Notes: generated from the letters alone by a model not told the origin. 64,000 bases of DNA from Pyrinomonadaceae bacterium (GCA_036004125.1 DASYRR010000170.1:15611-79610), one strand, 5' to 3'. Shown: positions 11,606-33,510, counted from the first letter of the stretch. Program-made: numbers and translations.

Positions 11606-11606
11606 T

Positions 11607-11760
11607 CTGGTTAAAAGGGCCTTCAGTCAATTACCACCAGTCACGGCTTTTACGATTAGTTACTAATTTTCAACAGGTTGCAGCCGCTTCGGATTACAAC
11701 TGTTATCAACCATTTGCGTCCTAGTTCCGGGTAATCACGTCACAAATTTGCCACAACAAA
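11607..11760 (+). repeat. copy A of the tRNA-Lys att core (CTGGTTAAAAG) plus about 145-bp element arm
   Basis: Aligns with 33541..33692, roughly three quarters identical by eye. Shared blocks are CCAGTCACGGCT, CAGGTTGCAGCCGCTTCGGA and CACAAATTTG. Confidence 0.7.
11739..11757 (+). promoter_or_regulatory. GTCACAAATTTGCCACAAC motif copy 1 (possible arm-type recombinase or Xis site)
   Basis: One of four same-strand copies of GCCACAA-ATTT-GCCACAA. Confidence 0.4.
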
Positions 11761-11832
11761 ACTGCGCCGTCCTTTGACGCGACGCTGATGTGTGTTCATC
11801 ACCCTACGCGAGAAAGTAGCGGTGACGAAAGG

Positions 11833-12012
11833 CTATCGTCGTAAGACAAATAGAAGAACGATCGCGGCCGCCACGATCACTGCGAGTATGAATCCGCCCA
11901 GGACGACCTTGTCAATCATTCGCTCCCCATCGAGATTCAGCGCGCAGGTGGTGCAGCCGCGCGAATTCGGATCGATTATATTGCCGCAGTCGCGGCAAGG
12001 GATAAGGTTCAT
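11833..12012 (-). CDS. small zinc-ribbon protein with C-terminal TM helix
   Basis: MNLIPCRDCGNIIDPNSRGCTTCA... then GGFILAVIVAAAIVLLFVL. GAGG lies upstream of the internal ATG. Confidence 0.5.
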   Translation of the reverse strand: MNLIPCRDCGNIIDPNSRGCTTCALNLDGERMIDKVVLGGFILAVIVAAAIVLLFVLRR

Positions 12013-12122
12013 AAGGTCAACCTCAATGCTGGTCCCTCGGAACATTACTCAAGATCAAAACCTATGCAATAATAAATCGAAGCCGTTCCATTGTCGCCTA
12101 ATTCTGAGATCTTTACTTTTGC

Positions 12123-12737
12123 ATGAGCGAACCCCAGCGAACCCCCGTGAGTCAATCCCCGAACTTTAGCGCGTGGGTGGACTTGCATGGAGATTACCTT
12201 TACAAGTACGCAATATTTCGTTTGCGTGACGGCTCAGCGGCCGAAGACTGCGTGCAGGAGACTTTCCTGGCTGCATTGAAGGCTTATCGCGGGTTCGAAG
12301 GCCGAGGATCCGAGCGCACCTGGCTGGTGGGGATTCTTAAACACAAGGTCACGGATCATTTCCGTCGAGTCACCCGCGAAGCGCCGATTGGGGAGACTGA
12401 GGGCGAAGAGTTCGAGCATAATGAATTCTTTGCCAGAACCGATGAGTGGAACAATCATTGGAGCAACGCCTATGCGCCAACTGATTGGCATGCGACCCCG
12501 GCGGAATTGATCGAGCGTAGTGATTTTTGGAAAGTGTTGAACGATTGCCTTTCTCCCCTGCCCGAGCGTACGGCCAGCGCTTTTACTCTTCGTGAAGTTG
12601 ATGGCCTAACTAGTGAACAGATTTGCGAGGCTTTGAACATCACGGTGAACAACCTTTGGGTGATGCTCCATCGGGCTCGACTCCACTTGCGCAACTGTCT
12701 CGAGATTAACTGGTTCACCAAAGAAACAACGGACTGA
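12123..12737 (+). CDS. ECF-type sigma-70 family RNA polymerase sigma factor
   Basis: Region 2 (YLYKYAIFRLRDGSAAEDCVQETFLAAL) and region 4 (LPERTASAFTLREVDGLTSEQICEALNITVNNLWVMLHRARLHLR). Confidence 0.85.
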   Translation: MSEPQRTPVSQSPNFSAWVDLHGDYLYKYAIFRLRDGSAAEDCVQETFLAALKAYRGFEGRGSERTWLVGILKHKVTDHFRRVTREAPIGETEGEEFEHNEFFARTDEWNNHWSNAYAPTDWHATPAELIERSDFWKVLNDCLSPLPERTASAFTLREVDGLTSEQICEALNITVNNLWVMLHRARLHLRNCLEINWFTKETTD

Positions 12738-12739
12738 GA

Positions 12740-13060
12740 ATGGCGTTAAAAGCCTACGACAAACTCAAACATGCGATTAGATGGTGGTTGCTCCGTCGTC
12801 TGCCCACTTGCAAGCAGACAGTGAAGGTCATTTCGGAATCTATGGAGCGAAGACTCTCAGTTTGGGAGCGCATCACCGTTAAACTTCATCTTTGGATCTG
12901 TCTCTGGTGCGTTTGGTATCTCGAGCACTTGCAGCTAATGAGGGAGACGATTCGTACCAAGGCTGCTCAAGAACCAAACCTTGAGTCCTCATCTCTTTCC
13001 CCGCTTTCACCTGAAGCGCGTGAGCGCATCAAATTGAGCCTCACCCAACCCAACGACTAA
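12740..13060 (+). CDS. zinc anti-sigma (ZAS, zf-HC2-like) protein 1, no TM segment
   Basis: Starts 2 nt after the sigma stop. Has an upstream C (PTCKQ) plus HLWICLWC (H-x3-C-x2-C). Confidence 0.7.
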   Translation: MALKAYDKLKHAIRWWLLRRLPTCKQTVKVISESMERRLSVWERITVKLHLWICLWCVWYLEHLQLMRETIRTKAAQEPNLESSSLSPLSPEARERIKLSLTQPND

Positions 13061-13149
13061 AAAACCGCCCACTCTTCGTAAGGTTTTCCTCATTCGTCCG
13101 ACAAACTCCCTGCTAGGGCAGAGTTCGCCTTGAGTTGGGTTGTTCGGAC

Positions 13150-14610
13150 ATGGATAAGAAACCTTCAAACGCAAACGCACACGATCACTCGCACGGCGTG
13201 AATCGGTTTGCGGTCATTCCGACCGCAGATCGGCTCAACGCCGATCCCAGGTTTACGGGTCGAGGCGTCACTATCGCCTTCCTTGATTCTGGATTCCAGC
13301 GGCACCCCGATCTGGTCGAACCTAACAACCGCGTCGTGGCTTTTCACGACATCAACGGTGAAGAGACAGAAACTGATCGTGAGCGACTGGTTCAGCCATG
13401 GCATTGGCATGGCACCCAAACTACGGTAGCTGCGGCAGGTAATGGTCACCTCTGCGATGGGAAATACCGTGGCCTTGCTTCGGACGCGCGACTCGTGCTG
13501 GTGAAAGTCAGTAAAACCGGACGGATCAGTGAAGAGAACATCGCGCGCGGACTCCGCTGGGTTATCAAAAACCGCGAACGTTTCAACATTCGCATACTGA
13601 ACATTTCGCTCGGCGGTGACGAGGACGTTTCCTGTTCCCAAAGCACAATCGATCAACTTGCGGAAGAAGCCATTCGGCAAGGTATCGTCGTTGTTGTCGC
13701 GGCAGGAAATACAACTGATCACGCTCCAATTCCCCCGGCGAACTCACCATCTGTAATCACGGTGGGTGGTTATGACGACGGCAATAACCCAGGACAAAAC
13801 GATCTCGGCCTCTATCACTCGAGTTTTGGGGTGACTGCAGGCGGCACGGTCAAGCCCGAATTAATTGCGCCGGCAATGTGGATAGCGGCGCCCATTCTTC
13901 CCAACACCTCAGTGTACGAACGGGCTGAAGCCTTATCGAAGTTAGCGGCCGCGCCGGACTACCAATTGCGAAGTCTTGCACGTGAACTTGAAGAAACGGC
14001 TGAACTCCCTGAACCGATAGCAGTCGGAGATGTCACAGCAATCCGCAATTTTGTCGAATCGACTTTGGAAAGGGAGAAGATCGTTGCAACCCACTATCAA
14101 CACGTCGATGGCACATCTTTCGCGGCGCCGATTATCAGTTCGATTGTGGCTCAGATGCTTGAAGCGAACCCTAAATTAACGCCGGGCGCCGTTAAGAACA
14201 TCTTGATTTCAACAGCAGACCGCATAACAACAGCGCCAGCTATCCGTCAGGGGTTTGGCGTGGTAAATGCCCGTCGCGCAGTTGAATTGGCCCTACGCGA
14301 AGAGCACGAACTTAAGACTGTCGGTTGCAGTCCGCCGCGAGTTGAGAATGGCCGACTTGTTTTTCTTTTTCACGACGACGCGGCGAATAGCGTTTCGCTG
14401 GTTGGCGACTTCAACAGTTGGAACACGGCGTTAACGCCGCTTCGCAAGGACGAATCTGGACTGTGGTTAGCGGAAGTTGAAGCGCCTAAGGCAGGAAATT
14501 ATCAATACAAATTTATCGTGGATGGTAGCCGGTGGCTTGAAGATCCGAGTAACGGAATGAAAGTGCCCGACAACTATGGAGGACTGAACTCAGTCCTTAC
14601 GATTGATTGA
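13150..14610 (+). CDS. cytoplasmic S8 subtilisin-family serine peptidase with C-terminal CBM48/E-set-like domain
   Basis: Catalytic triad: D (AFLDSGF), H (HWHGTQT), S (DGTSFAAP). No signal peptide. C-terminus is VSLVGDFNSWN...GNYQYKFIVDGSRWLEDP. Confidence 0.8.
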   Translation: MDKKPSNANAHDHSHGVNRFAVIPTADRLNADPRFTGRGVTIAFLDSGFQRHPDLVEPNNRVVAFHDINGEETETDRERLVQPWHWHGTQTTVAAAGNGHLCDGKYRGLASDARLVLVKVSKTGRISEENIARGLRWVIKNRERFNIRILNISLGGDEDVSCSQSTIDQLAEEAIRQGIVVVVAAGNTTDHAPIPPANSPSVITVGGYDDGNNPGQNDLGLYHSSFGVTAGGTVKPELIAPAMWIAAPILPNTSVYERAEALSKLAAAPDYQLRSLARELEETAELPEPIAVGDVTAIRNFVESTLEREKIVATHYQHVDGTSFAAPIISSIVAQMLEANPKLTPGAVKNILISTADRITTAPAIRQGFGVVNARRAVELALREEHELKTVGCSPPRVENGRLVFLFHDDAANSVSLVGDFNSWNTALTPLRKDESGLWLAEVEAPKAGNYQYKFIVDGSRWLEDPSNGMKVPDNYGGLNSVLTID

Positions 14611-14920
14611 AGAGGCACATTTGGAAATCTATACGATCACGAGAAAAGCGGCCAGACGATGGCTCTTGCGCACGCTGCAACCCTGCCAGGTAATTGTTCC
14701 GGTCATGTCCGAATCACTCGAACGGCGGCTCGGTGTAGTTGAACGGACAAAACTGCGGTTACACCTGCTGGTGTGCGCGTGGTGTGCGCGATACCTCAAA
14801 CAGATCAAGTTGCTTAGACAAGCTATTAGCCAACGTGAGTTCACCAGCGCAGACGATAACGCCAGCCCTCTCAAACTCAGTGACGAAGCTCGTCAACGCA
14901 TTTTCCGAATCACTTCGTAA
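14603..14920 (+). CDS. zinc anti-sigma (ZAS-like) protein 2, paralogue of 12740..13060
   Basis: The TTG start overlaps the peptidase stop (TTGATTGA). RRWLLRTLQPCQ...ERRLGVVERTKLRLHLLVCAWCARYL compares with RWWLLRRLPTCK...ERRLSVWERITVKLHLWICLWCVWYL. Confidence 0.65.
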   Translation: MIEEAHLEIYTITRKAARRWLLRTLQPCQVIVPVMSESLERRLGVVERTKLRLHLLVCAWCARYLKQIKLLRQAISQREFTSADDNASPLKLSDEARQRIFRITS

Positions 14921-15323
14921 GTCCATGTAAGGAATCGCGGTTCGCCCCGACTAATGGTTGAACGAGGAAGTTAGTTGAAGCGAGAACAAAAACAATGCGA
15001 CGAAGGTTAAGAATTAAGAAGAGGCTCCAGCGCAGGCGATTACGAATGCTGCGGACCAACGCGAAACAATGGCCAGTCTCAAGCGAGTTCGGTGGAAACG
15101 CCTTCGAGCAAATGAGCGCAAGTCCTGCCGACTTATTTTAAGCAGACGGCGCATCATCGCATCAACAGTTAGCGAGGTTCGCGCGAGTCGCGCGATAAGG
15201 GAAATGGAACTAACAAGTTCTGACAGTATCAGTGTGTTCGATAGTCTGCGCCGGCGAATGATGATGCCGGAACCGTGGACTTTTACGGAACCACTCAAAG
15301 TTTCTAATCGGTGGGGTCAGCAA

Positions 15324-16106
15324 ATGATGGAAGCATTGAAGGCGCATTGGCCGGAGTATTTGATGGAAGCAGGTGAACTTTGTCTTTTCATGATCTCGGC
15401 TTGCGCTTTTACTGTGCTGCTCTATCACCCTACCTCACCGGTTACTCAAGGAATTCAAAATGAAGTTATACGAAGAATATTGATGGGTGTCGCAATGGGC
15501 TCGACAGCCATTGCACTAATCTTTTCACCGTTGGGCAAACGATCCGGAGCCCACTTCAATCCTGCGGTGACTTTAACGTTTTTTCGACTTGGAAAGATCA
15601 AGGCTTGGGATGCGGTCTTCTATATTCTGTTTCAATTTGCCGGCGGTATCGTCGGCGTATTAATCGCCTCACAGCTTCTGGGAATGCTGGTTTCGCACAA
15701 AGCAGTGAATTACGCAGCCACTGTGCCTGGTCCAAAAGGACCGGCGACAGCATTTTTCGCCGAACTAACCATCACATTCATCCTGATGACAGTAATCCTC
15801 GCTGTTTCAAACACGGAGCGGCTGGGTCGCTGGACGGGAATGTTCGCGGGTGCGCTAGTCGCTGTCTACATCAGCATCGAGTCACCCCTTTCCGGTATGA
15901 GCATGAATCCAGCGCGCACCTTTGGTTCAGCGTTTAGCGCGCATGTTTGGACTTCGCTCTGGATCTATTTCACAGCGCCGCCGTTGGGAATGCTCCTGGC
16001 CACCGAGACTTACAAACGAATCAAGGGTAGTCGGGCGGTGGCGTGCGCGAAGCTGCATCACTACAACAACTCACACTGCATCTTCCAATGCAACTTTCAA
16101 GGGTAA
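15324..16106 (+). CDS. MIP/aquaporin-family channel
   Basis: Two NPA boxes (HFNPAVT, SMNPART) and six TM helices. Uses the internal ATG of ORF 15069..16106. Confidence 0.85.
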   Translation: MMEALKAHWPEYLMEAGELCLFMISACAFTVLLYHPTSPVTQGIQNEVIRRILMGVAMGSTAIALIFSPLGKRSGAHFNPAVTLTFFRLGKIKAWDAVFYILFQFAGGIVGVLIASQLLGMLVSHKAVNYAATVPGPKGPATAFFAELTITFILMTVILAVSNTERLGRWTGMFAGALVAVYISIESPLSGMSMNPARTFGSAFSAHVWTSLWIYFTAPPLGMLLATETYKRIKGSRAVACAKLHHYNNSHCIFQCNFQG

Positions 16107-16147
16107 CGCAAGACATCAACCAATTTCTTAGAAGGAGAAATCAAGTC

Positions 16148-16891
16148 ATGAAACACCGTAGACTCGCAATCAACCTGGTACTGCTCGCTGTCGCTATGTG
16201 CGGACAGTTTGCGGTTGCCTCTGCCACACGGAATCGCACCACCAAACAAACCAAGTTCACTGTTCGGGTCGAAAACATCTCGAAGCCCGATAGTCAGACC
16301 GCTTCAGACGGTACAAAGTTTCCCTTCGCGCTTTCACCTGGACTCTGGGTTCTGCACGACAAAAAATCCGGGCTCTTTACTGAAGGAAAGCCCGCAGTTA
16401 AGGGTCTTGAAATGCAGGCTGAAGATGGCGATCCTTCTGGACTCGCTAGCGTGCTCATGATGAGTCATCACGCCTCAGCGCTGCATGGCGTGTTCGATAC
16501 ACCAATAGGAATGATGAGCCCAGGCCCAATTCGCCCAGGCGATAACTACGAATTCAGCTTTATGGCCAGTCCCGGCATGAAACTCTCGCTGACCATGATG
16601 AATGGTCAGTCGAACGACGAGTTCTACGCACCGGACGAAAAGGGTATTGCACTCTTCGATTCCAAGGGCATGCCGGTTAGCGGCGAAATCACTGAGAAGC
16701 TAATCCTCTGGGATGCAGGCACGGAGGTTAACGAAGAGTTGGGCATTGGGCCAAATCAGGGACCGCGACAAAAAGGTATGAACACCGGCCCTGACCAGCA
16801 TGGCGTAGTCACGCGGGCGAAGAATGAGGCGATCTACACAAAGAACGGCGAACTCTTCCGCGTCACGATCACGGACGAACCTGGGATGTAA
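16148..16891 (+). CDS. secreted spondin_N-like domain protein
   Basis: Signal peptide MKHRRLAINLVLLAVAMCGQFAVA. FTVRVENISKP...FALSPGLWVLHD. Confidence 0.6.
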   Translation: MKHRRLAINLVLLAVAMCGQFAVASATRNRTTKQTKFTVRVENISKPDSQTASDGTKFPFALSPGLWVLHDKKSGLFTEGKPAVKGLEMQAEDGDPSGLASVLMMSHHASALHGVFDTPIGMMSPGPIRPGDNYEFSFMASPGMKLSLTMMNGQSNDEFYAPDEKGIALFDSKGMPVSGEITEKLILWDAGTEVNEELGIGPNQGPRQKGMNTGPDQHGVVTRAKNEAIYTKNGELFRVTITDEPGM

Positions 16892-17004
16892 GTCATTAGC
16901 AGTCGGCGCGGACGGGATGTCCGCCCGGTGCCAGTGATTGACGAAAACGGAGCGCAGATTCTGCCCGTGCAAAAACGCTTAGTCGAAAAGCAGGAGAAGC
17001 AATC

Positions 17005-17898
17005 ATGAAGACAACTACAAGATGGATCGCCGCCGCGCTCTTGCTCTCGGCTATCTCGGCAATCGCTGCCGGTCAAACGGTCACTGCAAAGAAATCACTG
17101 ACGATTGAAGGGGCGAGAAAAGTAATCGCGGCTGCGGTCGCTTATGCAAAGAAGAACAACGCACCTGGAGGTGTCATCGCGGTTGTTGATGACGGCGGGA
17201 ATTTGATGGCGCTCGAACGCCTCGATGGCACCTTTGCCGCCGGCGCAACTATTTCTATCGGCAAAGCGCGCACGGCCGTCTTGTTCAAACGTCCGACCAA
17301 AGTCTTTGAGGACATCATCAAGAACGGACGCACTGCGATGGTTGCGCTACCAGACAGCTTCTTCACTCCCTTGCAAGGCGGTATTCCGATCATCGTCGAC
17401 GGCCAGATTGTTGGCGGCGTCGGCGTGAGTGGAGCTTCGAGCGCGGCGCAGGACGAAGAGTTAGCGATCGCCGGCGCGAACGTGTTTGGTGGCGACCCAA
17501 AAATGGGTGACGCAATGCAAATGAGCAAACCGGCAGTGCTTTTCTTTGACAGCAACCAGGTCTCTGCGTCTTTCTCGAAAGGCGCCGTCCTGCTCGACGG
17601 AACTAACCGAAACTACATGGTTAACACGAGCCGTCGCGATAAACCTGGGCTGGCTGAGATTCACAGGCTCGACACTGACATCATTTACGTTGTCGATGGC
17701 ACGGCCACATTCGTAACTGGCGGAACTGCGGTGGAGACAAAAGAGATTGAGCCGAATGAGTTTCGCGGCTCGCGTATTGACGGCGGCGACGTGCGTCAAC
17801 TGTCGCAGGGCGACGTGATTGTCGTTCCCAATAACACACCGCATTGGTTCAAAGAAGTAGGCGGAACGTTTCTATATTACACGATTAAAGTTCGTTAA
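17005..17898 (+). CDS. secreted GlcG/HbpS-like (DUF336) heme-binding domain fused to a cupin-like domain
   Basis: GGVIAVVDDGGNLMALERLDG...GGIPIIVDGQIVGGVGVSGA. C-terminal VIVVPNNTPHWF. Confidence 0.7.
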   Translation: MKTTTRWIAAALLLSAISAIAAGQTVTAKKSLTIEGARKVIAAAVAYAKKNNAPGGVIAVVDDGGNLMALERLDGTFAAGATISIGKARTAVLFKRPTKVFEDIIKNGRTAMVALPDSFFTPLQGGIPIIVDGQIVGGVGVSGASSAAQDEELAIAGANVFGGDPKMGDAMQMSKPAVLFFDSNQVSASFSKGAVLLDGTNRNYMVNTSRRDKPGLAEIHRLDTDIIYVVDGTATFVTGGTAVETKEIEPNEFRGSRIDGGDVRQLSQGDVIVVPNNTPHWFKEVGGTFLYYTIKVR

Positions 17899-17927
17899 TG
17901 CGGCCACATAGTTGAGGAGTAACTGAA

Positions 17928-19670
17928 ATGAAAATCACCAACTTGATTCGCTTAATGAGACTGGCACTTCTGGTCATCATCGCGGTTTCTTTACAGCAGG
18001 GAATGGCAAGTGTTTCCAGTCAGGCCACCCTGACGCCCCTCAAAACCTCCGCTGAAATCCCCAGCGGAAAGCCCAACGCGACAATCGATCTCGCGACGCC
18101 TGATGGCCTTAGCGCAGTGAAAGGCGAATGGCGCTACAGCGACACGAAAATCGTCGAAGCAGATTTTCGCGGTCCGGGAGCGGACAGACAGCCGACCGGG
18201 CCCGCCGTCAAGACTTACGACTACACTCCGCACGCCGGTGGCGCCGAGTTTGATGATTCGAAATGGGAAATCATCGCCCCGACAACTTTGGATCAGCGCC
18301 GTGGTAACGGCCGGCTCGGCTTCAATTGGTATCGCATCAAGCTGACGCTGCCCGAACGCATCGGCGATTTCGATCCGGCCGGCTCGATCGCCGTCTTTGA
18401 TACGTCGCTGGATGACTATGCAGAAATCTGGGTGGATGGTGAATTGTCGCGATCTCTCGGCCAATCGGGCGGTTCAATCATCGCCGGCTGGAATGCCGAG
18501 AACCAACTGGTTGTTGGCCGCAATGTGAAACCTGGTCAGCAGATTCAGCTAGCTATCTTTGGCATCAACGGTCCGCTTTCAAATCCGCCGACAAATTTCA
18601 TCTACCTGCGCTACGCGAAGCTCTCTTTCTACAAAACTGAGCCTGGCCCGGTTGCGTTGACGCCAAGCGAAGTCAACGTCGAAGTCGTGCGAAACGTCCC
18701 GGCAATGAACGAGGTCGTCGGACCAAATCCGAAAGTTTTCAAACTTGCCGATGGGTTCAAGTTCACTGAAGGCCCGATCTGGGTGAACAAGGACGGCGGA
18801 TATTTGCTCTTCAGCGATCCGAATGCGAACACGATCTACAAGTACACTTCGAACGGAAGTCAGGGAAGCAGCCTGGAAATATTTCGTACGCAGAGTGGTT
18901 ACTCCGGCACTGACATCGCGGAATATGGCCAGCCTGGCTCCAATGGATTGACGCTTGATCCCCAAGGTCGCCTGACTATCAACCAGCACGGAAATCATCG
19001 CGTGGTGCGCGACGAGAAGGACGGAACACAAACGATTCTGGCTGACAGTTATCAGGGCAAGCGTTTGAATAGTCCAAACGATCTCGTCTATCGATCTGAC
19101 GGTACGCTCTTCTTTACTGACCCGCCGTTCGGTTTTCCTAAGGCTTTTGAAGACTCGCGTAAGCAGTTGCCATTCAGTGGAATCTTTTCGATTTACAAAG
19201 GCAAACTGCAGCTTATTAGCAAAGACTTGAGCGGTCCAAACGGAATCGCCCTATCTCCGGACGAGAAGTTCTTGTATGTCGGGAACTGGCCGCGTGCGTT
19301 GACAGGTCAACATGCGCCCGCCAGCGACGAGCCGGTGAGTGAGATCGGCGAGCAGCACAAGGCGATCATGCGCTATGAAGTTCAAGCCGATGGCACGCTC
19401 CGCAATGGCAAACTCTTTTTCGATTTCACGAGCGCGGCCGGCGAGGACGGTCTCGACGGCATCAAGGTGGATCAAAAAGGCAACCTGTACGTCTCCGCTC
19501 CCGGCGGACTTTGGGTCATCTCGCCGGAAGGCAAACACCTGGGCACGATCATCAGTCCGCGCCACCCGCACAACATGGCTTGGGGTGATGCGGACGGGAA
19601 GACTCTGTATCTCTGCGCGCGTTCCGGTCTGTATCGCATCCGACTCAATATTGCCGGCGTGCGCCCGTAA
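17928..19670 (+). CDS. secreted SMP-30/gluconolactonase/LRE-family protein with N-terminal sugar-binding-like domain
   Basis: FTEGPIWV, NGLTLDPQGRL, PNDLVYRSDGTLFFTDP, PNGIALSPDEKFLYV. Confidence 0.75.
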   Translation: MKITNLIRLMRLALLVIIAVSLQQGMASVSSQATLTPLKTSAEIPSGKPNATIDLATPDGLSAVKGEWRYSDTKIVEADFRGPGADRQPTGPAVKTYDYTPHAGGAEFDDSKWEIIAPTTLDQRRGNGRLGFNWYRIKLTLPERIGDFDPAGSIAVFDTSLDDYAEIWVDGELSRSLGQSGGSIIAGWNAENQLVVGRNVKPGQQIQLAIFGINGPLSNPPTNFIYLRYAKLSFYKTEPGPVALTPSEVNVEVVRNVPAMNEVVGPNPKVFKLADGFKFTEGPIWVNKDGGYLLFSDPNANTIYKYTSNGSQGSSLEIFRTQSGYSGTDIAEYGQPGSNGLTLDPQGRLTINQHGNHRVVRDEKDGTQTILADSYQGKRLNSPNDLVYRSDGTLFFTDPPFGFPKAFEDSRKQLPFSGIFSIYKGKLQLISKDLSGPNGIALSPDEKFLYVGNWPRALTGQHAPASDEPVSEIGEQHKAIMRYEVQADGTLRNGKLFFDFTSAAGEDGLDGIKVDQKGNLYVSAPGGLWVISPEGKHLGTIISPRHPHNMAWGDADGKTLYLCARSGLYRIRLNIAGVRP

Positions 19671-19715
19671 ATTGAAAAGACTTGGAGCCGATAAGTTTGC
19701 CAGCCCGTTGGAGCC

Positions 19716-19795
19716 AGATGTTTATAGCTCCGAGCCAAACGATGTACCCCGCTCCTTAGGAGCGTGATGTCTTGGCTTTAGTCCTCGACACATTT
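19716..19795. repeat. long imperfect palindrome centred on CGCTCC-TTA-GGAGCG
   Basis: The left arm AGATGTTTATAGCTCCGAGCCAAACGATGTACCCCGCTCC pairs imperfectly with GGAGCGTGATGTCTTGGCTTTAGTCCTCGACACATTT. Confidence 0.5.
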
Positions 19796-20174
19796 CGCCC
19801 CTACGGAGCGGAAGAAAATAAGCAAGGCCCAGCGTTCTATAAATACTGCCGATTACCGCGTACATCTGTCGGCTAGACAGCCCTACTGCAGCAACGACAA
19901 TAAAACCTGAACTACTCGCTACCGCAGACAGAGGTCTAGTGTTCTTGATTGCGCTGCTGATACTCTCAATAGAACTATCATTCGGCCTTAGTGCACCGCG
20001 AGCCAATCAATTGGCCAAGCTTCGAATCGGCGCCGACCTCAGAATCTCCTGGAAAGTATCGTCCAAACCTAAAGTTGTTTTGCTTCCAATATAATTTCCA
20101 CTGTAAGGATCTCCTCGCTGCGGCGACTAACAAGTCGTAAGCAGTTACCTACTAGTCAATTTAAGGAGACCATC

Positions 20175-20678
20175 ATGTCTAGAAAGCTTGTCGTTCTTGT
20201 CGTCCTATTAATCGCAGTCGCCGGCGCCTGGTACGCCTTCCGCCCGGAACGTCTTTTTATCAACCAAAAAGTCAACGAACAGTTTCCGACCGCCTCGGCA
20301 GCCAACATGGAGCCGATGAAGCTTGCGTCCGGTGTGTTTCACGCTAGGGCACACGAAACAAAAGGCACCGCGGCAATCTTCAAGCTCGCTGATGGTAGGA
20401 GGGCGCTACGCCTTACGGACTTTGAGACCTCCAATGGTCCCGACGTGCACGTTTATCTCGTGGCCGCCGCAGATGCAAAGGACAACGACACCGTGAAGAA
20501 CGCCGGCTTTGTTGACCTTGGCTCTCTGAAGGGAAACATCGGCGACCAGAACTACGAGGTTCCCGCGAACGTCGATTTGGCGAAGTATCGCGCCGCTACG
20601 ATTTGGTGCGCCCGATTCAACGTCAACTTCGGTACTGCGCCTTTGGTGACCGACTCCATGCAATCGATGAATCGCTAA
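20175..20678 (+). CDS. DM13 domain protein
   Basis: N-terminal anchor. GTAAIFKLADGRRALRLTDFETSNGPDVHVYL...ATIWCARFNVNFG. Confidence 0.7.
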   Translation: MSRKLVVLVVLLIAVAGAWYAFRPERLFINQKVNEQFPTASAANMEPMKLASGVFHARAHETKGTAAIFKLADGRRALRLTDFETSNGPDVHVYLVAAADAKDNDTVKNAGFVDLGSLKGNIGDQNYEVPANVDLAKYRAATIWCARFNVNFGTAPLVTDSMQSMNR

Positions 20679-20717
20679 ATTTTTGTATTCCTGGCAGCCC
20701 ATCGTCTTGGTGAATGA

Positions 20718-23389: not shown

Positions 23390-23400
23390 CATCTGACTCC

Positions 23401-23967
23401 ATGAGCACACGTCCACTCTTTATTCCGGTAGTCCTGGGTACCTCACGTAAGGGCCGCTCGAGCGAAAACGTCGCCAGGTTTGTCTTCGCCGAAGTTCAAA
23501 AACGTGAAGGCGTCGAGACTGAACTCATCGACATTCGCGATCTCAAATTCGCGATCGACGATGCCGGTGAAGCACTCAAAGACCCAACATTTTCTGCGCA
23601 GATGATGCGCGCTGATGGTCTGGTCATCGTGACTCCTGAATACAACCACGGCTATCCGGGTATGTTGAAGCACGTGATGGACACGAATTTGAAGGAGTAC
23701 ATTCACAAGGCCGTCGGCATCTGCGGAGTCTCCGCGGGAGGCTTTGGCGGCACCCGCGTCATACAAGGCTTACTGCCGGTGCTTAGGGAGCTCGGTTTGG
23801 TAACAATTTTCTGGGATGGGAATTTTTCAGGTGCGCAGGGTTTGTTCGACGAAGCCAGTGAGATCAAGGATCGCGCGACACACGAAAAACGCATCGACAA
23901 GTTCCTGAGCGAGTTGATCTGGATGAGTAGGGTGTTGCGTTACGGGCGAGAGAACTTTTCGATCTAG
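23401..23967 (+). CDS. NADPH-dependent FMN reductase family protein
   Basis: VVLGTSRKGRSS...LVIVTPEYNHGYPGMLK. Confidence 0.8.
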   Translation: MSTRPLFIPVVLGTSRKGRSSENVARFVFAEVQKREGVETELIDIRDLKFAIDDAGEALKDPTFSAQMMRADGLVIVTPEYNHGYPGMLKHVMDTNLKEYIHKAVGICGVSAGGFGGTRVIQGLLPVLRELGLVTIFWDGNFSGAQGLFDEASEIKDRATHEKRIDKFLSELIWMSRVLRYGRENFSI

Positions 23968-23977
23968 TCGGAAGAAT

Positions 23978-24631
23978 TTGAAAATCATTTCACTCAACGT
24001 GGGATTGCCCCGTCTGGTCTTGCGCGGTGACGAGCCGGTTTCGACGGGTATCTTCAAAGTGCCGGTTGCCGGAAGGGTGAGACTGCGTAAGTTGAACCTC
24101 GACGGTGATCTCCAGGCGGACCTGTCTGTTCATGGTGGCCTCGAAAAGGCCGTCTATCTTTACCCATCTGAGCACTACGAATTTTGGCGGCGAGAGTTGC
24201 CGGACATGGATCTGCAATGGGGAATGTTCGGCGAGAACTTCACGACGACGGGCTTCCGGGAAACGGAAACGAACATCGGAGATCGATTCAAAGTGGGGTC
24301 CGCTGAAGTAATGGTCACGCAACCGCGGATGCCTTGTTACAAGCTCGGTATTCGCTTTGGCAGAACGGACATTATCAGAAGATTTCTCGTCAGCGAGCGG
24401 TCGGGTTTTTATCTGTCGGTTGCAAAGGAAGGCGAAGTGGCGGCTGGTGATGAGTTCGAGCTGATCGAGAAAAACGCGTCTGGTGTAAGGGTCGTCGATG
24501 TCACGCGACTATATAGCAGCGACAAAAGCAACGTCGATTTATTGAGACGAGCAATCGCGACTGAAGCATTGCCAGGGAGTTGGCGAAGTTATTTTCAGGA
24601 ACGTTTGGAAAAGCTGACCGATAAGCATTAG
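23978..24631 (+). CDS. MOSC domain protein (YiiM-like)
   Basis: LDGDLQADLSVHGG...GENFTTTG...RMPCYKLGIRF. Confidence 0.8.
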   Translation: MKIISLNVGLPRLVLRGDEPVSTGIFKVPVAGRVRLRKLNLDGDLQADLSVHGGLEKAVYLYPSEHYEFWRRELPDMDLQWGMFGENFTTTGFRETETNIGDRFKVGSAEVMVTQPRMPCYKLGIRFGRTDIIRRFLVSERSGFYLSVAKEGEVAAGDEFELIEKNASGVRVVDVTRLYSSDKSNVDLLRRAIATEALPGSWRSYFQERLEKLTDKH

Positions 24632-24642
24632 GAGGCAGCGGA

Positions 24643-24816
24643 ATGTCGAAACCCAAAATGACTTGCCCGGACTGTGGCGCGGAAATGAATCATCACGCAA
24701 TGAAAATCGATTACGGCGTGGACGATCCTGCGTTTGTCGATGCGGTCTTTGGCGGCGCGTTGAAAGAGGCGCACACCTGTCCTGGATGCGGACGAACTGA
24801 ATTGCGAGCGGCGTAA
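24643..24816 (+). CDS. 57-aa zinc-ribbon protein (below the ORF-track size cutoff)
   Basis: GGAGG lies 8 nt upstream. MSKPKMTCPDCGAEMNHH...HTCPGCGRTELRAA has two CxxC pairs. Confidence 0.5.
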   Translation: MSKPKMTCPDCGAEMNHHAMKIDYGVDDPAFVDAVFGGALKEAHTCPGCGRTELRAA

Positions 24817-24825
24817 CTAACGCTT

Positions 24826-27492: not shown

Positions 27493-27622
27493 CACCGTGG
27501 AGTTCTTAGCCCGCTTCGCAGGCTTCTGGTGAGATCACAAACCTAGAATTGCCCGCCTGTAAGGAATCCCTCTTCAATCCGACTCATGATTGTTCGGCCA
27601 ATCCAGACAAGGACCAACAATC

Positions 27623-28612
27623 ATGAACGCGACGTCACACCAGCAACGATTTTCGAAAAAGCCTTCGAATCATTTACCGGCGAGCCGACTCCACTGCAGC
27701 GAACGCTGGGCAGTAATCCTGGCCGGAGGCGACGGCACGCGTCTGCAATCAATGACGCGCACCATTACCGGCGACGATCGGCCTAAGCAATTTGTTCCTG
27801 TCATCGGCGGCAGCACGCTGCTCGATCAGACTCGCTCTCGCGTAGCGTTGTCAGTTTCGCCGGCCCGCACCTTGTTTGTCGTTACCGAAAAGCATCGACG
27901 CTTTTATCAGTCTTTGACTCGGAGTGTTTCGCAAAGTCTTCTGCTTGAGCAGTCTGCGAATAAAGGAACCGCACCGGCAATTCTTTATGCCTTGATGCGC
28001 GTGGCAGCGAAGTCGCCGAAAGCCATCGTCGCATTGTTTCCTTCAGATCATTACTTTGCTGATGACGAAGCGTTCATGTCGCATGTCGACCTGGCTTTCG
28101 ACGCTGCGCAGGTGCAACCTGAAACGGCAACTCTGCTGGGCATTACGCCGAGTGGCCCTGAAACTGCATATGGATGGATCGAGCCGCAGCGATCGATTCT
28201 CGGCAGTATGCCCCGCTCAATTACTCGCGTGAGTCGTTTTTGGGAAAAGCCTGACGCGAACGTGGCGCGCTCTCTGATGGACCAAGGTTGTCTGTGGAAC
28301 AGCTTTGTGATGGTGGGCCGAGTCGAGGCATTACTGAGAATGACGCGCGAAGCGTTGCCAGAATTGTTCCTGGCCTTTGCTCGCACCGTGCCGATGTTCG
28401 GAGGAGCTTTGGAGCGAAGCGCGATGTGCGATTTGTACCGCAGAATTCCTGATTCAAATTTTTCGCACGAGGTGTTGGCAGAGCGGCCTAACGATCTCGC
28501 GGTCATGAGAGTTGGTGATGTTGGCTGGAGCGATCTTGGCGAGCCGGCCCGCGTACTGGCGACACTGGCGCAAATGGGAGTTCGAACAGAAATGGCGATG
28601 TCAGCAAGTTGA
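27623..28612 (+). CDS. sugar-phosphate nucleotidyltransferase (mannose-1-phosphate guanylyltransferase-like)
   Basis: [18 protein letters not shown]...[10 protein letters not shown]. Confidence 0.7.
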
Positions 28613-28643
28613 ACATATAAGAAACCAAGTTCGAGGAGCAATC

Positions 28644-29750
28644 ATGAAAGCAATTGCAGTCAAACCGGGAATACCAAACACAGTTCATCTGGCGGAACTA
28701 CCGGCACCGAGAGTCACAGACGTGCCGAACGGTCGTGGCGTCCTAGTCAAAGTTTTGCGTGTTGGCGTTGACGGCACCGACAAAGAAATAAATGCGGCGG
28801 AGTATGGGCAGGCGCCCGAGGGTTACGATTATCTGGTGATCGGTCACGAAGGTTTTGGCCAAGTCGAAGCTGTCGGTCCGAACGTGACGGAAGTGAAGCC
28901 GGGCGATTATGTGGTCGCAACGGTGCGCCGTCCGGGGTCGAGCATCTACGACCTAATCGGCACCAACGACATGACTACCGACGATACCTATTTTGAGCGT
29001 GGCATCAATCTGCGCCACGGCTACATGAGTCAATACTACGTCGATGATGCTGAATTTATCGTCAAGATTCCCCAGGGCCTTAAGGAAGTCGGCGTATTGC
29101 TCGAACCAACGACCGTGGTTGAGAAGGGCATCGCTCAGGCCTACGAAATTCAACGCCGTCTGCGGGTTTGGAAACCGAAGCGCGCGGCCGTGATGGGTGC
29201 TGGCACGATCGGTTTGCTCGCGACTTTGGTGCTGCGCTTGAAGGGATTACAGGTAGTAACTTTTGGCAAAACACCAAAACCATATTTGAATTCCGATTTG
29301 ATCGAAGCGATTGGTGCTACCTATCAATCGACGGACCAGCTTTCAATTCTGGACGGCGCAAAGAAGTACGGGCCGTTCGACATCATCTTCGAAGCTACCG
29401 GATTTTCGCCAGTCGTGTTTGACAGCATGCAAGCGCTGGGCAAAAACGGCGTGCTGGTTTTGTCCAGCGTCACAGGCGGCGATCGCAAGATCGAAGTGCC
29501 GGCGGACAAGATTAACCTGGAATTCGTGCTCGGCAATAAGGTAATGGTCGGCACTGTCAACGCGAACCGGGAATACTTCGAGCTGGGCGTCAAGGACTTG
29601 GCGCAGGCCGAAGCCGAATATCCCGGTTGGCTTTCGCGTTTACTGACGCATCCAGTCAAAGGCCTGGAGAATTATCGGGAGTTGTTCGCGAAGCTTACGA
29701 ATCCGAACGGCGCTATCAAAGTCTTCTGTGAAGTTGCGGAGCTGACCTAA
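28644..29750 (+). CDS. zinc-dependent MDR-family glucose 1-dehydrogenase-like protein
   Basis: MKAIAVKPG...[10 protein letters not shown]...[23 protein letters not shown] Rossmann motif. Confidence 0.7.
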
Positions 29751-31090
29751 TGGCCAGCAATTCAAACCGGCCAGGGAGAATCCTGATTCTCGGCAGCGGC
29801 TTCGGCGGCCTCTATACAGCTCTGCATCTTGAGAAGAAGCTTCGTCGCTACACTGATGTTGAACTCACGCTCGTCAATCGCGAGAACTTCTTTCTGTTCA
29901 CGCCGATGTTGCATGAAGTTGCGGCTGGCGATCTGGACTTGACGCACATCGTCAATCCGGTGCGCAAGCTGTTGCGCCGCACACATTTTTTCAATGGCGA
30001 TATCAAGAGAATCGATCTGAAGGAACGCCGCGTGATCGTTGCTCATGCCGATGACCATCACGATCACGAATTGTCCTATGACTATCTGGTCCTGGCGCTC
30101 GGTTCGGTTACGAACTTCTACAATTTGCCGGGCCTGGCCGAAAACGCACTGACAATGAAGTCACTCAGCGACGCGATTCGCTTGCGCAGCCGTCTGATCA
30201 AGAACCTCGAGGATGCAGACTTTGAATGTGCCTGCGAAGATCGTTCGCGGCTATTAACCGTGGTGGTGGCGGGCGGCGGTTTTGCCGGCGTCGAAACGAT
30301 AGCTTCTGTGAATGACTTCGTGCGCGAAGCGATTGAGTTTTATCCGAAGCTCACCGAAGCAGAGCTGCGCATCGTTCTGATCGAAGCAACCGATGTGATC
30401 TTGCCGGAACTGGGTCCGCAACTTGGCGCGTATGCGCGCAAGAAACTCGCCCGTCGCGGGGTCCAGTTTCTCATGAACACGGCAGTCAAGAGTGTTTCGA
30501 ACACTGAAGTTAATCTGAGCGATGGGACATCGCTTAAGACCAACATGCTGGTTTGGACGGCCGGTGTTTCCCCGAACCCACTGCTGAACATGTTGGATTG
30601 TTCCAAGGAACGCGGTCGGTTGGTCACAAATGAATTTCTTGAAGTCACCGATTATCCCGGAGTCTGGGCGCTCGGTGATTGCGCTGCCGTGCCCGATCAG
30701 ACGACGGGCAAATCTTGTCCGCCCACCGCGCAACACGCGATACGCCAGGGGAAGGTCGTGGCTGAAAACCTCGTTGCGGCCATCAATGGTGGCCGGCGGC
30801 GACGTTTCGAATTCAAGACAATCGGCGCGCTTGCTTCGATCGGCAAACGCACAGGTGTGGCTCGCATCATGGGCGTGAATTTCTCCGGCTTCATAGCCTG
30901 GTGGTTATGGCGAACGATTTATCTGAGCAAGCTTCCTCGTTTCGAAAAGAAGGTGCGGGTCGCACTCGATTGGTTCCTGGATCTCTTGTTTTCGAAGGAC
31001 CTTGTCCAGTTCATGGATGTGAGTATGCGAGTTGAAAGGCCAGCACTTATCGAAGCCGCGGCGGATGATTCTGAAAGTCGCGCAGCTTAA
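29750..31090 (+). CDS. type II NADH dehydrogenase-like FAD/NAD(P) oxidoreductase
   Basis: RILILGSGFGGLY, VVVAGGGFAGVE, WALGDCA. Confidence 0.8.
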   Translation: MASNSNRPGRILILGSGFGGLYTALHLEKKLRRYTDVELTLVNRENFFLFTPMLHEVAAGDLDLTHIVNPVRKLLRRTHFFNGDIKRIDLKERRVIVAHADDHHDHELSYDYLVLALGSVTNFYNLPGLAENALTMKSLSDAIRLRSRLIKNLEDADFECACEDRSRLLTVVVAGGGFAGVETIASVNDFVREAIEFYPKLTEAELRIVLIEATDVILPELGPQLGAYARKKLARRGVQFLMNTAVKSVSNTEVNLSDGTSLKTNMLVWTAGVSPNPLLNMLDCSKERGRLVTNEFLEVTDYPGVWALGDCAAVPDQTTGKSCPPTAQHAIRQGKVVAENLVAAINGGRRRRFEFKTIGALASIGKRTGVARIMGVNFSGFIAWWLWRTIYLSKLPRFEKKVRVALDWFLDLLFSKDLVQFMDVSMRVERPALIEAAADDSESRAA

Positions 31091-31115
31091 CTGCGTTCTC
31101 AGAAAGAAGGTAGCA

Positions 31116-33122
31116 ATGATTGAAATAGATCAGGAGAGTTGCCGGAATCCCGAAACGGCACTGTCGCGCGAATGGCTCGAGACTAACGGCATAGGTGGGT
31201 TTTCGTCCTCGACGATCACAGGTCTGAACACACGCCGCTATCACGGCTTGCTGACCGCCGCGACAAAGCCGCCAGTTGGGCGACTAGTCTTACTTTCGAA
31301 ACTCGAAGAGACACTTATTATTGATGGTCGGCGCCACGAACTGTCAGCCAATCAGTATCCGGGCATCGTTCATCCCGAGGGCTTCAAGTATCAAACTGGC
31401 TTCCGTCTCTACCCCTTCCCAGTTTTCACCTACGAAGTTGAGGGAGTTCGTTTGGAAAAGCTTGTGTTCATGGTGCAGGGAGAGAACACAACGGTGGTGC
31501 AGTATGAAGTGTCGGCGCCCCCTGAAGATCGGATTGCTGTCCCGATCGTTCTAGAGGTTCGCCCGCTGATCGCGTTTCGCGATTATCACAGCACGACGCA
31601 TGAAAATGGCGCGCTGATTTCAAACGTGGAAACTCAAGACGGACTGACGACGGTCAAGCCTTACAGCGACTTACCTGCGTTGCATTTTGCACACGATATT
31701 GCTCAGATCGACGTAAACGGCTTTTGGTATCGCAACTTTCAATATACGGTTGAACAGGAACGCGGTCTCGACTTCGCTGAAGATCTCTTCAGTCCTTGCG
31801 TTTTCATTTTCGATCTTAACGCAAGTGCGAAAATCAGCATTATTGTGTCGACCGAGCGCCGCGATGTCGCTAAGGCGGACGCTTACCGCATCGCCGAAAT
31901 GGAACGCCGAGACTTATTAAGCGGGAAGTCGGAGGCTGGTAACGTAATAAGCACACTTACCGCCGCCGCAGATCAATTCATTGTTGCACGCGAACGCTGC
32001 AAAACTGTTATCGCCGGCTATCATTGGTTCGCTGATTGGGGCCGCGACACAATGATTGCGCTGCCGGGTTTGACACTGACGACCGGGCACGCCGAAATTG
32101 CGAAGAGCATTCTGGCTGAGTTTGCCGCGCACGTCGATCAGGGAATGTTACCGAACCGTTTTCCGGATGCGGGCGAGACTCCCGAATACAACACCGTCGA
32201 TGCGACGCTCTGGTTCTTCGAAGCAGTGCGCGCGCTGTTGCAGTACACAAACGACTACGATTTCGTCCGCTCAACTCTATACAGCGTGCTTATTGACATA
32301 ATCGAATGGCATGTGAAAGGTACTCGATACAACATCCACGTTGACTCAGACGGCTTGTTGTTTTCCGGCGAATCCGGCGTACAACTCACCTGGATGGACG
32401 CGAAAGTCGGTGACTGGGTGGTCACGCCACGCACCGGTAAGGCCGTCGAGATTCAAGCGCTATGGTACAACGCACTGCGGGTCATGGAGGGGTTGGCAGA
32501 AAAGTTCGGCGACAAAGCAAATCAAAAGCAGTACAAAGCAATGGCGGCATTTGCGCGCAAGAGTTTCAATGAACAGTTTTGGAACGAGCAGACAGGCTGT
32601 CTCTTCGACGTAGTGAACGGCGACGAGCGCGACGCTTCAATCAGGCCCAATCAGGTCTTCACAATTAGCTTGGCGAATTCGATGGTTTCGACCGCGCGAG
32701 CGAAGAGCATCCTGCGCGTAGTCGAGCGCGAACTACTAACACCACGCGGCCTCCGCACTCTCTCGCCGAACGATTCCCGTTACATCGGTCGTTACGAAGG
32801 CGATCCGCGCAGTCGCGACGGCTCTTATCACCAGGGAACCGTCTGGCCGTGGTTGATGGGACCGTTTATCACCGCTCACGTGAAAACGTTTGGTGTGAAG
32901 GTCGGCGCAAAGTTCGCGATCGAATGGCTCTTAGCTTTTGAGGATCATCTTAGGGAAGCTTGCCTGGGCCAGATCTCGGAAATCTTCGACGGCGATGCCC
33001 CGCATACACCACGTGGTTGCGTTGCACAGGGATGGAGCGTTGCGGAGCTTTTGCGCGCTGCTGTTGAAGAGGTTTATCAGAAGAAGGAGTCGACCCAGGT
33101 TGCGTCCGCTAACGTCGCGTGA
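31116..33122 (+). CDS. glycogen debranching enzyme (amylo-alpha-1,6-glucosidase family)
   Basis: EWLETNGIGGFSSSTITGLNTRRYHGLL N-domain. GYHWFADWGRDTMIALPGL, DATLWF, YHQGTVWPWLMGPF. Confidence 0.8.
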   Translation: MIEIDQESCRNPETALSREWLETNGIGGFSSSTITGLNTRRYHGLLTAATKPPVGRLVLLSKLEETLIIDGRRHELSANQYPGIVHPEGFKYQTGFRLYPFPVFTYEVEGVRLEKLVFMVQGENTTVVQYEVSAPPEDRIAVPIVLEVRPLIAFRDYHSTTHENGALISNVETQDGLTTVKPYSDLPALHFAHDIAQIDVNGFWYRNFQYTVEQERGLDFAEDLFSPCVFIFDLNASAKISIIVSTERRDVAKADAYRIAEMERRDLLSGKSEAGNVISTLTAAADQFIVARERCKTVIAGYHWFADWGRDTMIALPGLTLTTGHAEIAKSILAEFAAHVDQGMLPNRFPDAGETPEYNTVDATLWFFEAVRALLQYTNDYDFVRSTLYSVLIDIIEWHVKGTRYNIHVDSDGLLFSGESGVQLTWMDAKVGDWVVTPRTGKAVEIQALWYNALRVMEGLAEKFGDKANQKQYKAMAAFARKSFNEQFWNEQTGCLFDVVNGDERDASIRPNQVFTISLANSMVSTARAKSILRVVERELLTPRGLRTLSPNDSRYIGRYEGDPRSRDGSYHQGTVWPWLMGPFITAHVKTFGVKVGAKFAIEWLLAFEDHLREACLGQISEIFDGDAPHTPRGCVAQGWSVAELLRAAVEEVYQKKESTQVASANVA

Positions 33123-33260
33123 AGGGAAGGTTAGACGTTCTCATAGGATACTTGGGCTTTCAGCGAAATAGTCTCTGACTCGCTTAATGACAACTGAGCT
33201 GATTTCGTAGTTTCGAGGAAGAGACTTGGCGACTATATGGCGAAGAGGGACGGACAGATT

Positions 33261-33279
33261 GCCACAAATTTGCCACAAG
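33261..33279 (+). promoter_or_regulatory. GCCACAAATTTGCCACAAG motif copy 2
   Basis: Lies 87 bp left of the tRNA-derived remnant at 33348..33361. Confidence 0.4.
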
Positions 33280-33347
33280 CCAAGATCCGGCTCGTAAGTT
33301 TCTACTCTAAACGATTGACTCCATTGTCAAAGGGCAACTTCATTTTT

Positions 33348-33361
33348 GCGACCCACTGGTT
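33348..33361 (-). repeat. 14-bp remnant of the tRNA-Lys 3' half (degenerate att junction)
   Basis: GCGACCCACTGGTT equals tRNA positions 40958..40971. The following CGAGATGAATTGGT resembles CCAGATGAATTGGT at about 40.6 kb. Confidence 0.45.
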
Positions 33362-33510
33362 CGAGATGAATTGGTCGCGGCGAGTGCAGCATGACGGGTC
33401 AAACGTTGTGACGCTGAGAGTTACATAGAGGTGAACCCTCACGCACGTTTCAAGTGGTTCGAGCTTGTTTTCTTATGCGACGGAGTTAAGTTATTGATAG
33501 GATGGGTTAT

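Follow-up and report, generated by a model that had tools for sequence, protein, structure and literature searches.

A probable tandem array of integrase-less islands at a tRNA-Lys gene of an acidobacterium

How did a 21-kb run of seemingly metabolic genes and an Rhs element come to lie one behind the other next to a single tRNA-Lys gene? The locus is found in a 64,000-nt stretch of a Pyrinomonadaceae bacterium (GCA_036004125.1 DASYRR010000170.1:15611-79610), which we call the window and within which all coordinates are counted. The host family belongs to the Acidobacteriota, and the top purA match among GTDB species representatives has 89% amino acid identity. An earlier note, made from the sequence alone, had proposed that integrase-less islands with metabolic cargo accreted here in tandem. 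We found that 11607-40976 is quite probably an array of two units that were integrated successively into the 3' part of tRNA-Lys(UUU), namely island 1 (11607-33509), which carries the metabolic genes, and island 2 (33552-40934), which carries the Rhs gene. The proposal is supported by a relative with one island only, by 11 relatives with other DNA at this locus, by a contrast in synonymous divergence (dS, calculated by the Nei-Gojobori method), and by about 60 metagenome contigs that bear the same arm.

The integration target is an intact tRNA-Lys(UUU) gene on the minus strand (40932-41007; ARAGORN; Rfam, 75 bits), the last 42 nt of which at the 3' side (40935-40976) serve as the right direct repeat of island 2. 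The left direct repeat (33510-33551, + strand) is an identical 42-bp displaced copy of the tRNA 3' part that extends from the anticodon loop to the acceptor end. It is followed by the distal arm, or armX, of island 2 (33552-33692, +), which ends in GCCACAAATTTGTCACA (33672-33688) and is 91% identical to the consensus of a family described below. At the other end, the tRNA-proximal arm, or armY, of island 2 (40855-40934, +) is of a short type and contains a ATTGCCACAAATTTGCCACAA repeat and, downstream of the tRNA, a hairpin with the appearance of a terminator. The same arm is found beside cores in metagenome loci L099 and L149, and arms with this layout adjoin cores in L118 and L120. In sequence, island 2 has kept its two cores and its two arms intact. 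Its cargo is an Rhs-repeat protein of 1998 amino acids with DUF4214 (34093-40089, minus; Pfam). At the classical integrase position lies an open reading frame (ORF) of 161 amino acids (39999-40484, minus) that has no Pfam match and no integrase similarity.

The Rhs gene itself occurs in two forms. A form with a 2197-bp internal deletion (36080-38276) had the higher depth in soil runs X1, X2, and X3 and was the sole form in X4. JGI contig L001 likewise has the deletion form, with its ORF broken into pieces of 496 and 624 amino acids. The window contains the long, intact form.

Island 1 begins with the same arm. Its left core is reduced to the remnant CTGGTTAAAAG (11607-11617, +), the anticodon-loop end of a displaced tRNA-Lys 3' core. 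A fragment of the N-terminal Zn-binding region of an IS91-family transposase (11460-11606, minus; Pfam Zn_Tnp_IS91, E 8e-9) abuts and truncates this core, and is only distantly related to a fuller IS91 copy at 3021-3890. The decayed armX that follows (11618-11760, +) ends in the repeat GTCACAAATTTGCCACA (11739-11755). The two left arms (11607-11760 and 33541-33692) have a mean column identity of 78% from CTGGTTAAAAG onward (blastn, ~79% over 120 bp, E 3e-22), with CCAGTCACGGCT and CAGGTTGCAGCCGCTTCGGA in common. With up to two mismatches allowed, the motif GCCACAAATTTGYCACA occurs four times in the window, always on the + strand (11739, 33261, 33672, and 40858), while 0.01 copies were expected and four were reached in none of 100 shuffles. 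Two of the copies close the left arms on their inner side, and the other two precede the tRNA-derived right ends by 68-80 bp. In armY of island 1, the arm-type repeat ATTGCCACAAATTTGCCACAA (33258-33278, +) is identical over 21 bp to that at 40855-40875, and TGCGACCCACTGGTT follows 68-80 bp after each of these copies, at 33347-33361 and 40956-40970. Thus, both blocks start with the same arm and carry the same motif before their tRNA-derived right ends, as the earlier note had claimed, and these features lie where it had placed them.

The right site of island 1 in the window consists of a pseudo-site and a spacer. The pseudo-site, TGC-GACCCACTGG-TTCGAGA-TGAATTGGTC (33347-33376, +), resembles a tRNA anticodon stem-loop as an inverted repeat, and its first 15 nt equal the core. 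The spacer (33377-33509, +) runs from the pseudo-site to the core and is part of the tRNA-proximal arm of island 1. The pseudo-site is a recurrent element. In the form GACCCACTGG-N7-(CCAG/TGAA)TTGGTC (GACCCACTGG-N7-NNNNTTGGTC) it was found in the window (33350-33376), at L187 3023, at L169 12161, and in many of the loci L095-L166. In many loci, true tRNA-Lys genes included, it sits 83 or 160-177 nt to the left of full cores.

A one-island state of the locus was found in a relative, denoted R, which is represented by a single 53-kb contig (ena:ERZ27251176:k141_728548; loci L187, L186, and L169). JGI locus L107 is 100% identical to it; L107 and L169 were connected by following the ENA contig along its GMC and SGL proteins. 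On the left of R, a gene for a Cas3-like helicase is followed by a TTGCCACAA motif, a pseudo-site, a spacer, a full 42-bp core, armX, a Zn-ribbon ORF, and the genes from the ECF sigma factor to the glycogen debranching enzyme (GDE). After the GDE gene come a half-motif at the place that matches ATTGCCACAAATTTGCCACAA of island 1 (L169 12072), a pseudo-site, a spacer, tRNA-Lys, purA, thioredoxin, glgA, and rho. The pseudo-site is thus present at both island junctions, and island 1 is enclosed in R by a 42-bp direct repeat with 100% identity. The Rhs element and the MacB gene are absent, and the GDE gene is joined to tRNA-Lys. R and the window become homologous precisely at 11607, at the base that directly follows the truncation of the core; R has the full 42-bp core at this place.

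The window segment 33258-33509 corresponds to the segment of R that links the GDE gene to the intact tRNA. Since the matching layout joins the two in R, 33362-33509 is the tRNA-proximal arm of island 1. This argues against the suggestion of the earlier note that 33362-33510 is the leftover of a third event. The similarity of CGAGATGAATTGGT to the region at 40.6 kb, which had been cited in its favor, does exist as a 12-nt match, but its meaning could not be demonstrated. The core at 33510-33551 appears, from this comparison of sequences, to be the tRNA end that was once supplied by island 1 and later displaced by the Rhs island. Compared with the consensus of 40 distinct copies, the armX of the R ortholog is 95% identical, that of island 2 is 91% identical, and that of island 1 in the window is only 75% identical. 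The contrast between 75% in the window and 95% in R fits a loss of constraint once the site was destroyed. With its left core cut by the IS91-type remnant and its arm decayed, island 1 is probably now immobile and fixed.

The history of the cargo differs from that of its surroundings. Nucleotide identity between the window and R was 85-90% over most of the block, in contrast to 68-78% in the flank. Most block genes had dS values of 0.33-0.65 between the window and R, whereas purA had 2.2 and the CxxC, glgA, and rho genes were saturated. By purA, R is no nearer to the window than L008, L150, and L162, which have no block at tRNA-Lys. The low dS of the block together with the distant purA implies that the ancestor of the block is much more recent than that of the surrounding genomes, and that the block was exchanged horizontally.

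Comparison of the tRNA-Lys locus among further relatives showed other DNA at this position. In 11 relatives (L008, L009, L010, L021, L097, L133, L140, L150, L146, L161, and L162), purA-tRNA-Lys was kept and other DNA was found in the several kb seen beside the tRNA. The order rho-glgA-purA-tRNA-Lys was kept in L008, L009, L010, L021, and six metagenome loci, and no block genes were found in the several kb seen past tRNA-Lys in any of these. Separate direct repeats of the tRNA 3' part were found in L008, at 0.9 kb, and in L009, at 4.7 kb, those of L009 enclosing an island with an intact integrase of 378 amino acids. tRNA-Lys is thus a hot spot of integration in Pyrinomonadaceae. The 0.9-kb islet of L008 (9680-10700), the closest GTDB relative, putatively encodes a BrnT/BrnA-type toxin-antitoxin pair as read from the translation; copies of the tRNA 3' part, at least 52 bp long, lie on either side of the islet, and its arms are unrelated to those of the window.

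The cargo of island 1 is a block of 18-19 genes on the + strand (12123-33122) that extends from an ECF sigma factor to GDE. According to Pfam, its first part comprises the ECF sigma factor, an S8 peptidase with CBM48, a MIP channel, an HbpS-cupin protein, an SGL gluconolactonase-like protein, a DM13 protein, and a GMC oxidoreductase. It continues with a glyoxalase-fold protein, an FMN reductase, a MOSC protein, a GH63-like hydrolase, an NTP transferase, a glucose dehydrogenase-like protein, NDH-2, and GDE. It is preceded by a small ORF with a Zn-ribbon and a transmembrane segment (11836-12048, minus), which has no Pfam match, is kept in L107, L180, L181, and L182, and is the first conserved element of the cargo; homology common to all copies of the block starts at 11857-11912. 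No recombinase was found in the block by Pfam or by tblastn with seven integrases. The gene content is therefore that described in the earlier note, with a single small ORF on the minus strand and no recombinase.

Synteny of the block was kept at 84-90% nucleotide identity in R and at least five other contigs. It should be noted that the block is a mosaic. Between genomes, dS was at least 1 for o16043 and the genes encoding HbpS, SGL, and DM13, and MOSC was saturated (window 16043-20678 and 23978-24631), while the rest had values of 0.25-0.7. Insertions also vary between SGL and DM13, which are 0.5 kb apart in the window but separated by 2-7.5 kb of other genes in L180-L183 and L186.

The same combination of core and arm is widespread in soil metagenomes. 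The armX 20-mer CAGGTTGCAGCCGCTTCGGA had exact matches in 73 metagenome stretches, in about 60 of which a tRNA-Lys core is fused to a conserved arm of ~135 bp that ends in GTCACAAATTTGCCACAA and is followed by unrelated cargo. The cargo of this family includes ECF sigma factors with Ser/Thr kinases, CadC-like regulators, cupins, and haloperoxidase-like proteins. Many loci have two to three cores in direct order, some of them beside tRNA-Lys-purA. The arm columns exceed 90% conservation across the 40 distinct copies. The tRNA-proximal arms are of at least two types, with different tandem repeats of an 11-bp period (TTGCCACAA or YCGCACAC), each followed by a hairpin that reads as a terminator of the tRNA.

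Remnants of integrase C-termini abut cores in L117/L108 and L156/L159, and further fragments were found in L102/L110 and L165. Searches by phmmer and tblastn with the Xer-like recombinase of the window, two Firmicutes phage integrases, two of the remnants, and seven acidobacterial phage integrases recovered only fragments in the 73 loci and no match in the islands of the window; across 11607-40934, there was neither a Phage_integrase domain nor a tblastn match to an integrase. The loci have no ORF in common directly after the arm. No intact parent with these arms, whether an integrative and conjugative element (ICE) or an integrative and mobilisable element (IME), was found in the 73 metagenome loci or IMG/VR, and the arm 20-mer and an 18-mer from the arm end had zero matches in IMG/VR. 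Five phage-like contigs of IMG/VR (L171, L173, L175, L177, and L179) have an identical core and an arm of 165-190 nt with tandem repeats at its end, after which a Phage_integrase gene begins. By analogy with these contigs, the conserved arm of the islands may be the integrase-proximal arm of an attP from which the integrase gene has gone.

Two further properties of the arm were examined. The exact 20-mer TTGCCACAAATTTGCCACAA occurs in seven IMG/VR contigs (L088-L094; e.g., L088 12003-12022 and L089 7165-7184). The matches were confined to prophages of Firmicutes type. In the two examined, L088 and L089, which look like such prophages, it lies just past the stop codon of a tyrosine integrase whose N-terminus, MASIKQQ.NGKWR, looks AP2-like by eye. 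These matches may reflect an arm-site specificity in common or a coincidence, and we treat them as a lead, not as evidence. A structured RNA in the arm was considered and rejected, as RNAalifold on the 40 distinct copies gave -8 kcal/mol with no compensatory pairs on either strand. In an Rfam search of the arm, only the tRNA reached the gathering threshold, the other matches being weak and at chance level. The conservation of the arm is thus a signal at the level of DNA.

Based on these observations, we propose the following history. Each att site would consist of a tRNA-proximal arm with the tandem TTGCCACAA repeat and then a terminator-like hairpin or the pseudo-site and spacer, a stretch of 42-44 nt that duplicates the tRNA between its anticodon loop and its 3' end, and the ~135-bp distal arm that closes with the same tandem repeat. 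We infer that a tyrosine integrase encoded in neither island binds the tandem 9-mer repeats of both arms, with the crossover at the anticodon-loop end of the core. The copy brought by the element would complete the tRNA, and the old 3' half would be left at the far end by the distal arm. Island 1 would have entered first, with its ECF-headed cluster for stress, redox, and glycan metabolism. The Rhs island would later have entered the regenerated tRNA and displaced island 1 outward, repeated entry of this kind giving rise to an array.

The block is not confined to tRNA-Lys. At least five left flanks and several right ones were seen, and the neighbors of the block are different in nearly every genome. 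In ERZ25039516 contig_1969, from another Pyrinomonadaceae genome, the block is enclosed by two direct repeats of ~440 bp that are ~90% identical. In each of these, tandem TGGCCAATA-type repeats surround a fragment that looks like the 3' end of a tRNA or tmRNA. The same ~440-bp module follows the GDE gene in GCA_036507195.1. The block cargo thus appears, from these repeats, to be associated with at least two different att systems. The second att-like module (L168 12000-12440, L180 7930-8365, and L184 12000-12400) has tandem TGGCCAATAYSTGGCCAGAA repeats on both sides of the fragment GGAGGCCAGGAGTTCGACCCTCCTMTGCTCCACCA. The tRNA/tmRNA-like fragment beside the block in L168 gave no ARAGORN or Rfam call, and no att-like sequence was found at the block in L181 or L182/L183. 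The earlier note had held that these genes at a different, non-tRNA locus with no arm sequences would speak against islands. Such copies do exist and literally fit that description, yet they are easier to reconcile with mobile cargo than with a native locus.

Several observations weigh against an array of mobile islands. In the window, the att sites of island 1 are represented only by core remnants of 11 bp and 15 bp. No integrase, excisionase, or transfer gene occurs in the 64-kb window except for a Xer/IntI-like recombinase at 3898-4764. An integrase was found in none of the eight complete islands seen beside tRNA-Lys (0 of 6 for the other complete islands), and simple decay of self-mobile elements is not an obvious reason for a conserved distal arm. 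Excision or circle joints were absent from the contigs of the four soil runs (X1-X4), in which islands and flank were equally deep, although contigs cannot show rare events. The contigs of these runs break at the repeated core, and the loose ends belong to other species with the same tRNA and are hence uninformative on excision; the sole joint was the deletion inside the Rhs gene. The islands also lack a compositional signal, with G+C contents of 0.51-0.56 in the block versus 0.50-0.55 in the flank. Furthermore, the island arms are absent at the block in L180/L168, L181, L182/L183, and L184, and the cargo may also move by other routes.

A rival explanation is homologous recombination. The block could have spread between lineages via conserved flanks, for example after transformation or transduction, and not by site-specific integration, with the att-like ends as relics of unrelated small elements that happened to enter beside it. 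The at least five left flanks and several right flanks would be consistent with this, as would the mosaic center (dS of at least 1 for o16043, HbpS, SGL, and DM13 and saturation for MOSC, with 0.3-0.6 elsewhere) and the variable SGL-DM13 insertion, both of them usual for homologous exchange. Allelic replacement would also find homologous flanks, given that a diverged Cas3-like left neighbor (53-57% amino acid identity) is found in both the window and R. However, the segment of low divergence in R is bounded by the core and armX on the left and by the junction of armY and the tRNA on the right, the block of ERZ25039516 is again bracketed by an att-like repeat pair of another type, and about 60 contigs in which core and arm border unrelated cargo argue that the arm marks the edge of a mobile unit. 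We therefore regard homologous exchange as the explanation of the block to be distinctly unlikely.

That the block is native chromosome, with the Rhs element as the only island and the arm at 11607-11760 as the far end of an older, mostly deleted element, is in our view very improbable. Its genes are common and well conserved in Pyrinomonadaceae (GDE matches with 75-89% identity; GMC clusters with 288 and 1323 members), its G+C content is indistinguishable from the flanks, and there is no mobility gene inside, all of which favors this reading. Yet its dS is far below that of adjacent core genes against the same relative, it is missing from several kb beside tRNA-Lys in 11 relatives, its neighbors differ in almost every genome, and the orientation of the core and armX puts the island interior rightward, over the block. 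We give almost no credence to the view that the core and arm are a small dispersed repeat, such as a miniature inverted-repeat transposable element or a non-coding RNA gene, present at both places by chance. The arm 20-mer is found in 73 metagenome stretches, and there are weak tRNA-like ARAGORN and Rfam calls over the core and the first part of the arm. However, almost every copy is joined to the tRNA-Lys 3' core in the same orientation, with arrays beside tRNA-Lys-purA wherever the flank is visible, there are just two copies in the 64-kb window, and neither terminal inverted repeats nor covariation nor an Rfam family above threshold were found. The worry raised in the earlier note, that the arm might be a dispersed repeat at many unrelated sites, is thus not borne out, the arm being fused to the tRNA-Lys 3' core in about 60 contigs, often in tandem.

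Two successive integrations into tRNA-Lys thus remain our preferred account, and the resulting array has counterparts in known systems. Direct repeats of the tRNA 3' end, presence and absence among relatives, and a history discordant with the flanking core genes are found here as in other tRNA islands; an integrase of its own by the att site and a deviant base composition are lacking. As in tRNA-targeting islands and prophages with a lambda-like attP, the identity block extends from the anticodon loop to the tRNA 3' end, tandem direct repeats are found on both arms, the displaced tRNA 3' half lies at the far end, and phage-like contigs with an identical core have an integrase after the equivalent arm. 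The islands differ by the missing integrase gene, by arms that share no sequence with the arms of these phage-like contigs, and by a second, anticodon-stem-like pseudo-site in the long variant of the tRNA-proximal arm. An anticodon-loop class of tRNA sublocations for integration was reportedly recognized by Williams in 2002.

The absence of integration genes is also a property of cis-mobilisable elements (CIMEs), which have lost their integration genes and kept their att sites (PMC5704250). CIMEs and tandem accretion have been reviewed for the ICESt1-related elements of Streptococcus thermophilus and the tRNA-Lys composite island of S. agalactiae (PMC5704250, citing Pavlovic 2004, Bellanger 2011). 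Under the definition of this review, both islands show the gene loss of a CIME and, judged by sequence, appear CIME-like. They resemble CIMEs in having no integration or transfer genes, in being bounded by att-type repeats, and in stacking by successive integration into a regenerated site, and they share with the composite island of S. agalactiae the same target, the 3' end of tRNA-Lys. Unlike the known cases, they belong to the phylum Acidobacteriota, no parental ICE or IME was found, and one att site is truncated in the window. A further difference is that all complete islands seen are integrase-less yet have a highly conserved distal arm of ~135 bp. The architecture is therefore already known, and is here found in a little-studied phylum. 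What is unusual is the consistent lack of an integrase together with a strongly conserved arm over dozens of soil contigs, the recurrent pseudo-site, and one block between two att systems.

A more far-reaching view is that the tRNA-Lys locus is an open cassette array, in which integrase-less multi-gene islands, each with the integrase-proximal ~135-bp arm and a copy of the tRNA 3' part, are inserted, stacked, and exchanged in trans by a recombinase encoded elsewhere; we consider this a doubtful though real possibility. The recombinase may be encoded by a helper phage, an ICE, or the chromosome, and selection for recombination competence may be what maintains the arm, whose identity to the consensus is 95% at the intact site and 75% at the truncated one. 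Metabolic and regulatory modules as large as the 21-kb block from the ECF sigma factor to GDE may then circulate among soil acidobacteria as passive cargo, even switching att systems. In their possible working, not in membership, the islands are similar to integron cassette arrays, with recombinase-less units in one orientation, one conserved site each, unrelated cargo, and a fixed chromosomal site. However, there is no linked IntI integrase, attI, or promoter platform here, the sites are tRNA-derived with lambda-type arms and not attC hairpins, no conserved hairpin or covariation is found in the arm, and the units are multi-gene islands of 3 to 29 kb.

Acidobacteriota are among the most abundant soil bacteria, and to our knowledge almost nothing is known experimentally about their gene exchange. 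Our results point to the passage between lineages of a 21-kb, regulon-sized module (ECF sigma factor, protease, aquaporin, redox enzymes, and glycosidases for glycogen or compatible solutes) that is stacked at one tRNA gene. They also provide a concrete candidate integration system for an uncultured group, with a defined core, two arms, and a tandem 9-mer repeat, and a warning for annotation that genes seemingly of core metabolism can be island cargo in these genomes. If the islands are mobilised in trans, large gene clusters would here be exchanged much as cassettes are.

The DNA to the left of island 1 is a patchwork with a fuller IS91 transposase and an upstream Xer/IntI-like recombinase (3021-4764), TonB_C fragments, an LVIVD-repeat protein, and HicA. 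The IS91-family Y2 transposase (289 amino acids, possibly truncated) is encoded directly downstream of the 288-amino-acid Xer/IntI-like tyrosine recombinase (Phage_int_SAM_4 and Phage_integrase domains; 3021-4764 for the pair, minus). This recombinase, the only one of the window (3898-4764), is paired with the IS91 transposase 7 kb from the array and is not positioned to serve it. The HicA toxin ORF is at 9886-10224 (Pfam, E 1e-21). A remnant at 10734-11008 is homologous (53-57% amino acid identity, tblastx) to the N-terminal region of the Cas3-like helicase of R, suggesting that the window and R have the same diverged left context. To the right of tRNA-Lys, the window has a MacB-type permease, purA, glgA, rho, lon, clpX, clpP, and tig. 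The MacB/FtsX-type permease (41179-43704) lies between tRNA-Lys and purA in the lineage of the window only, and the gap between purA and the tRNA is ~100-550 bp in L008, L009, L010, L021, and L169.

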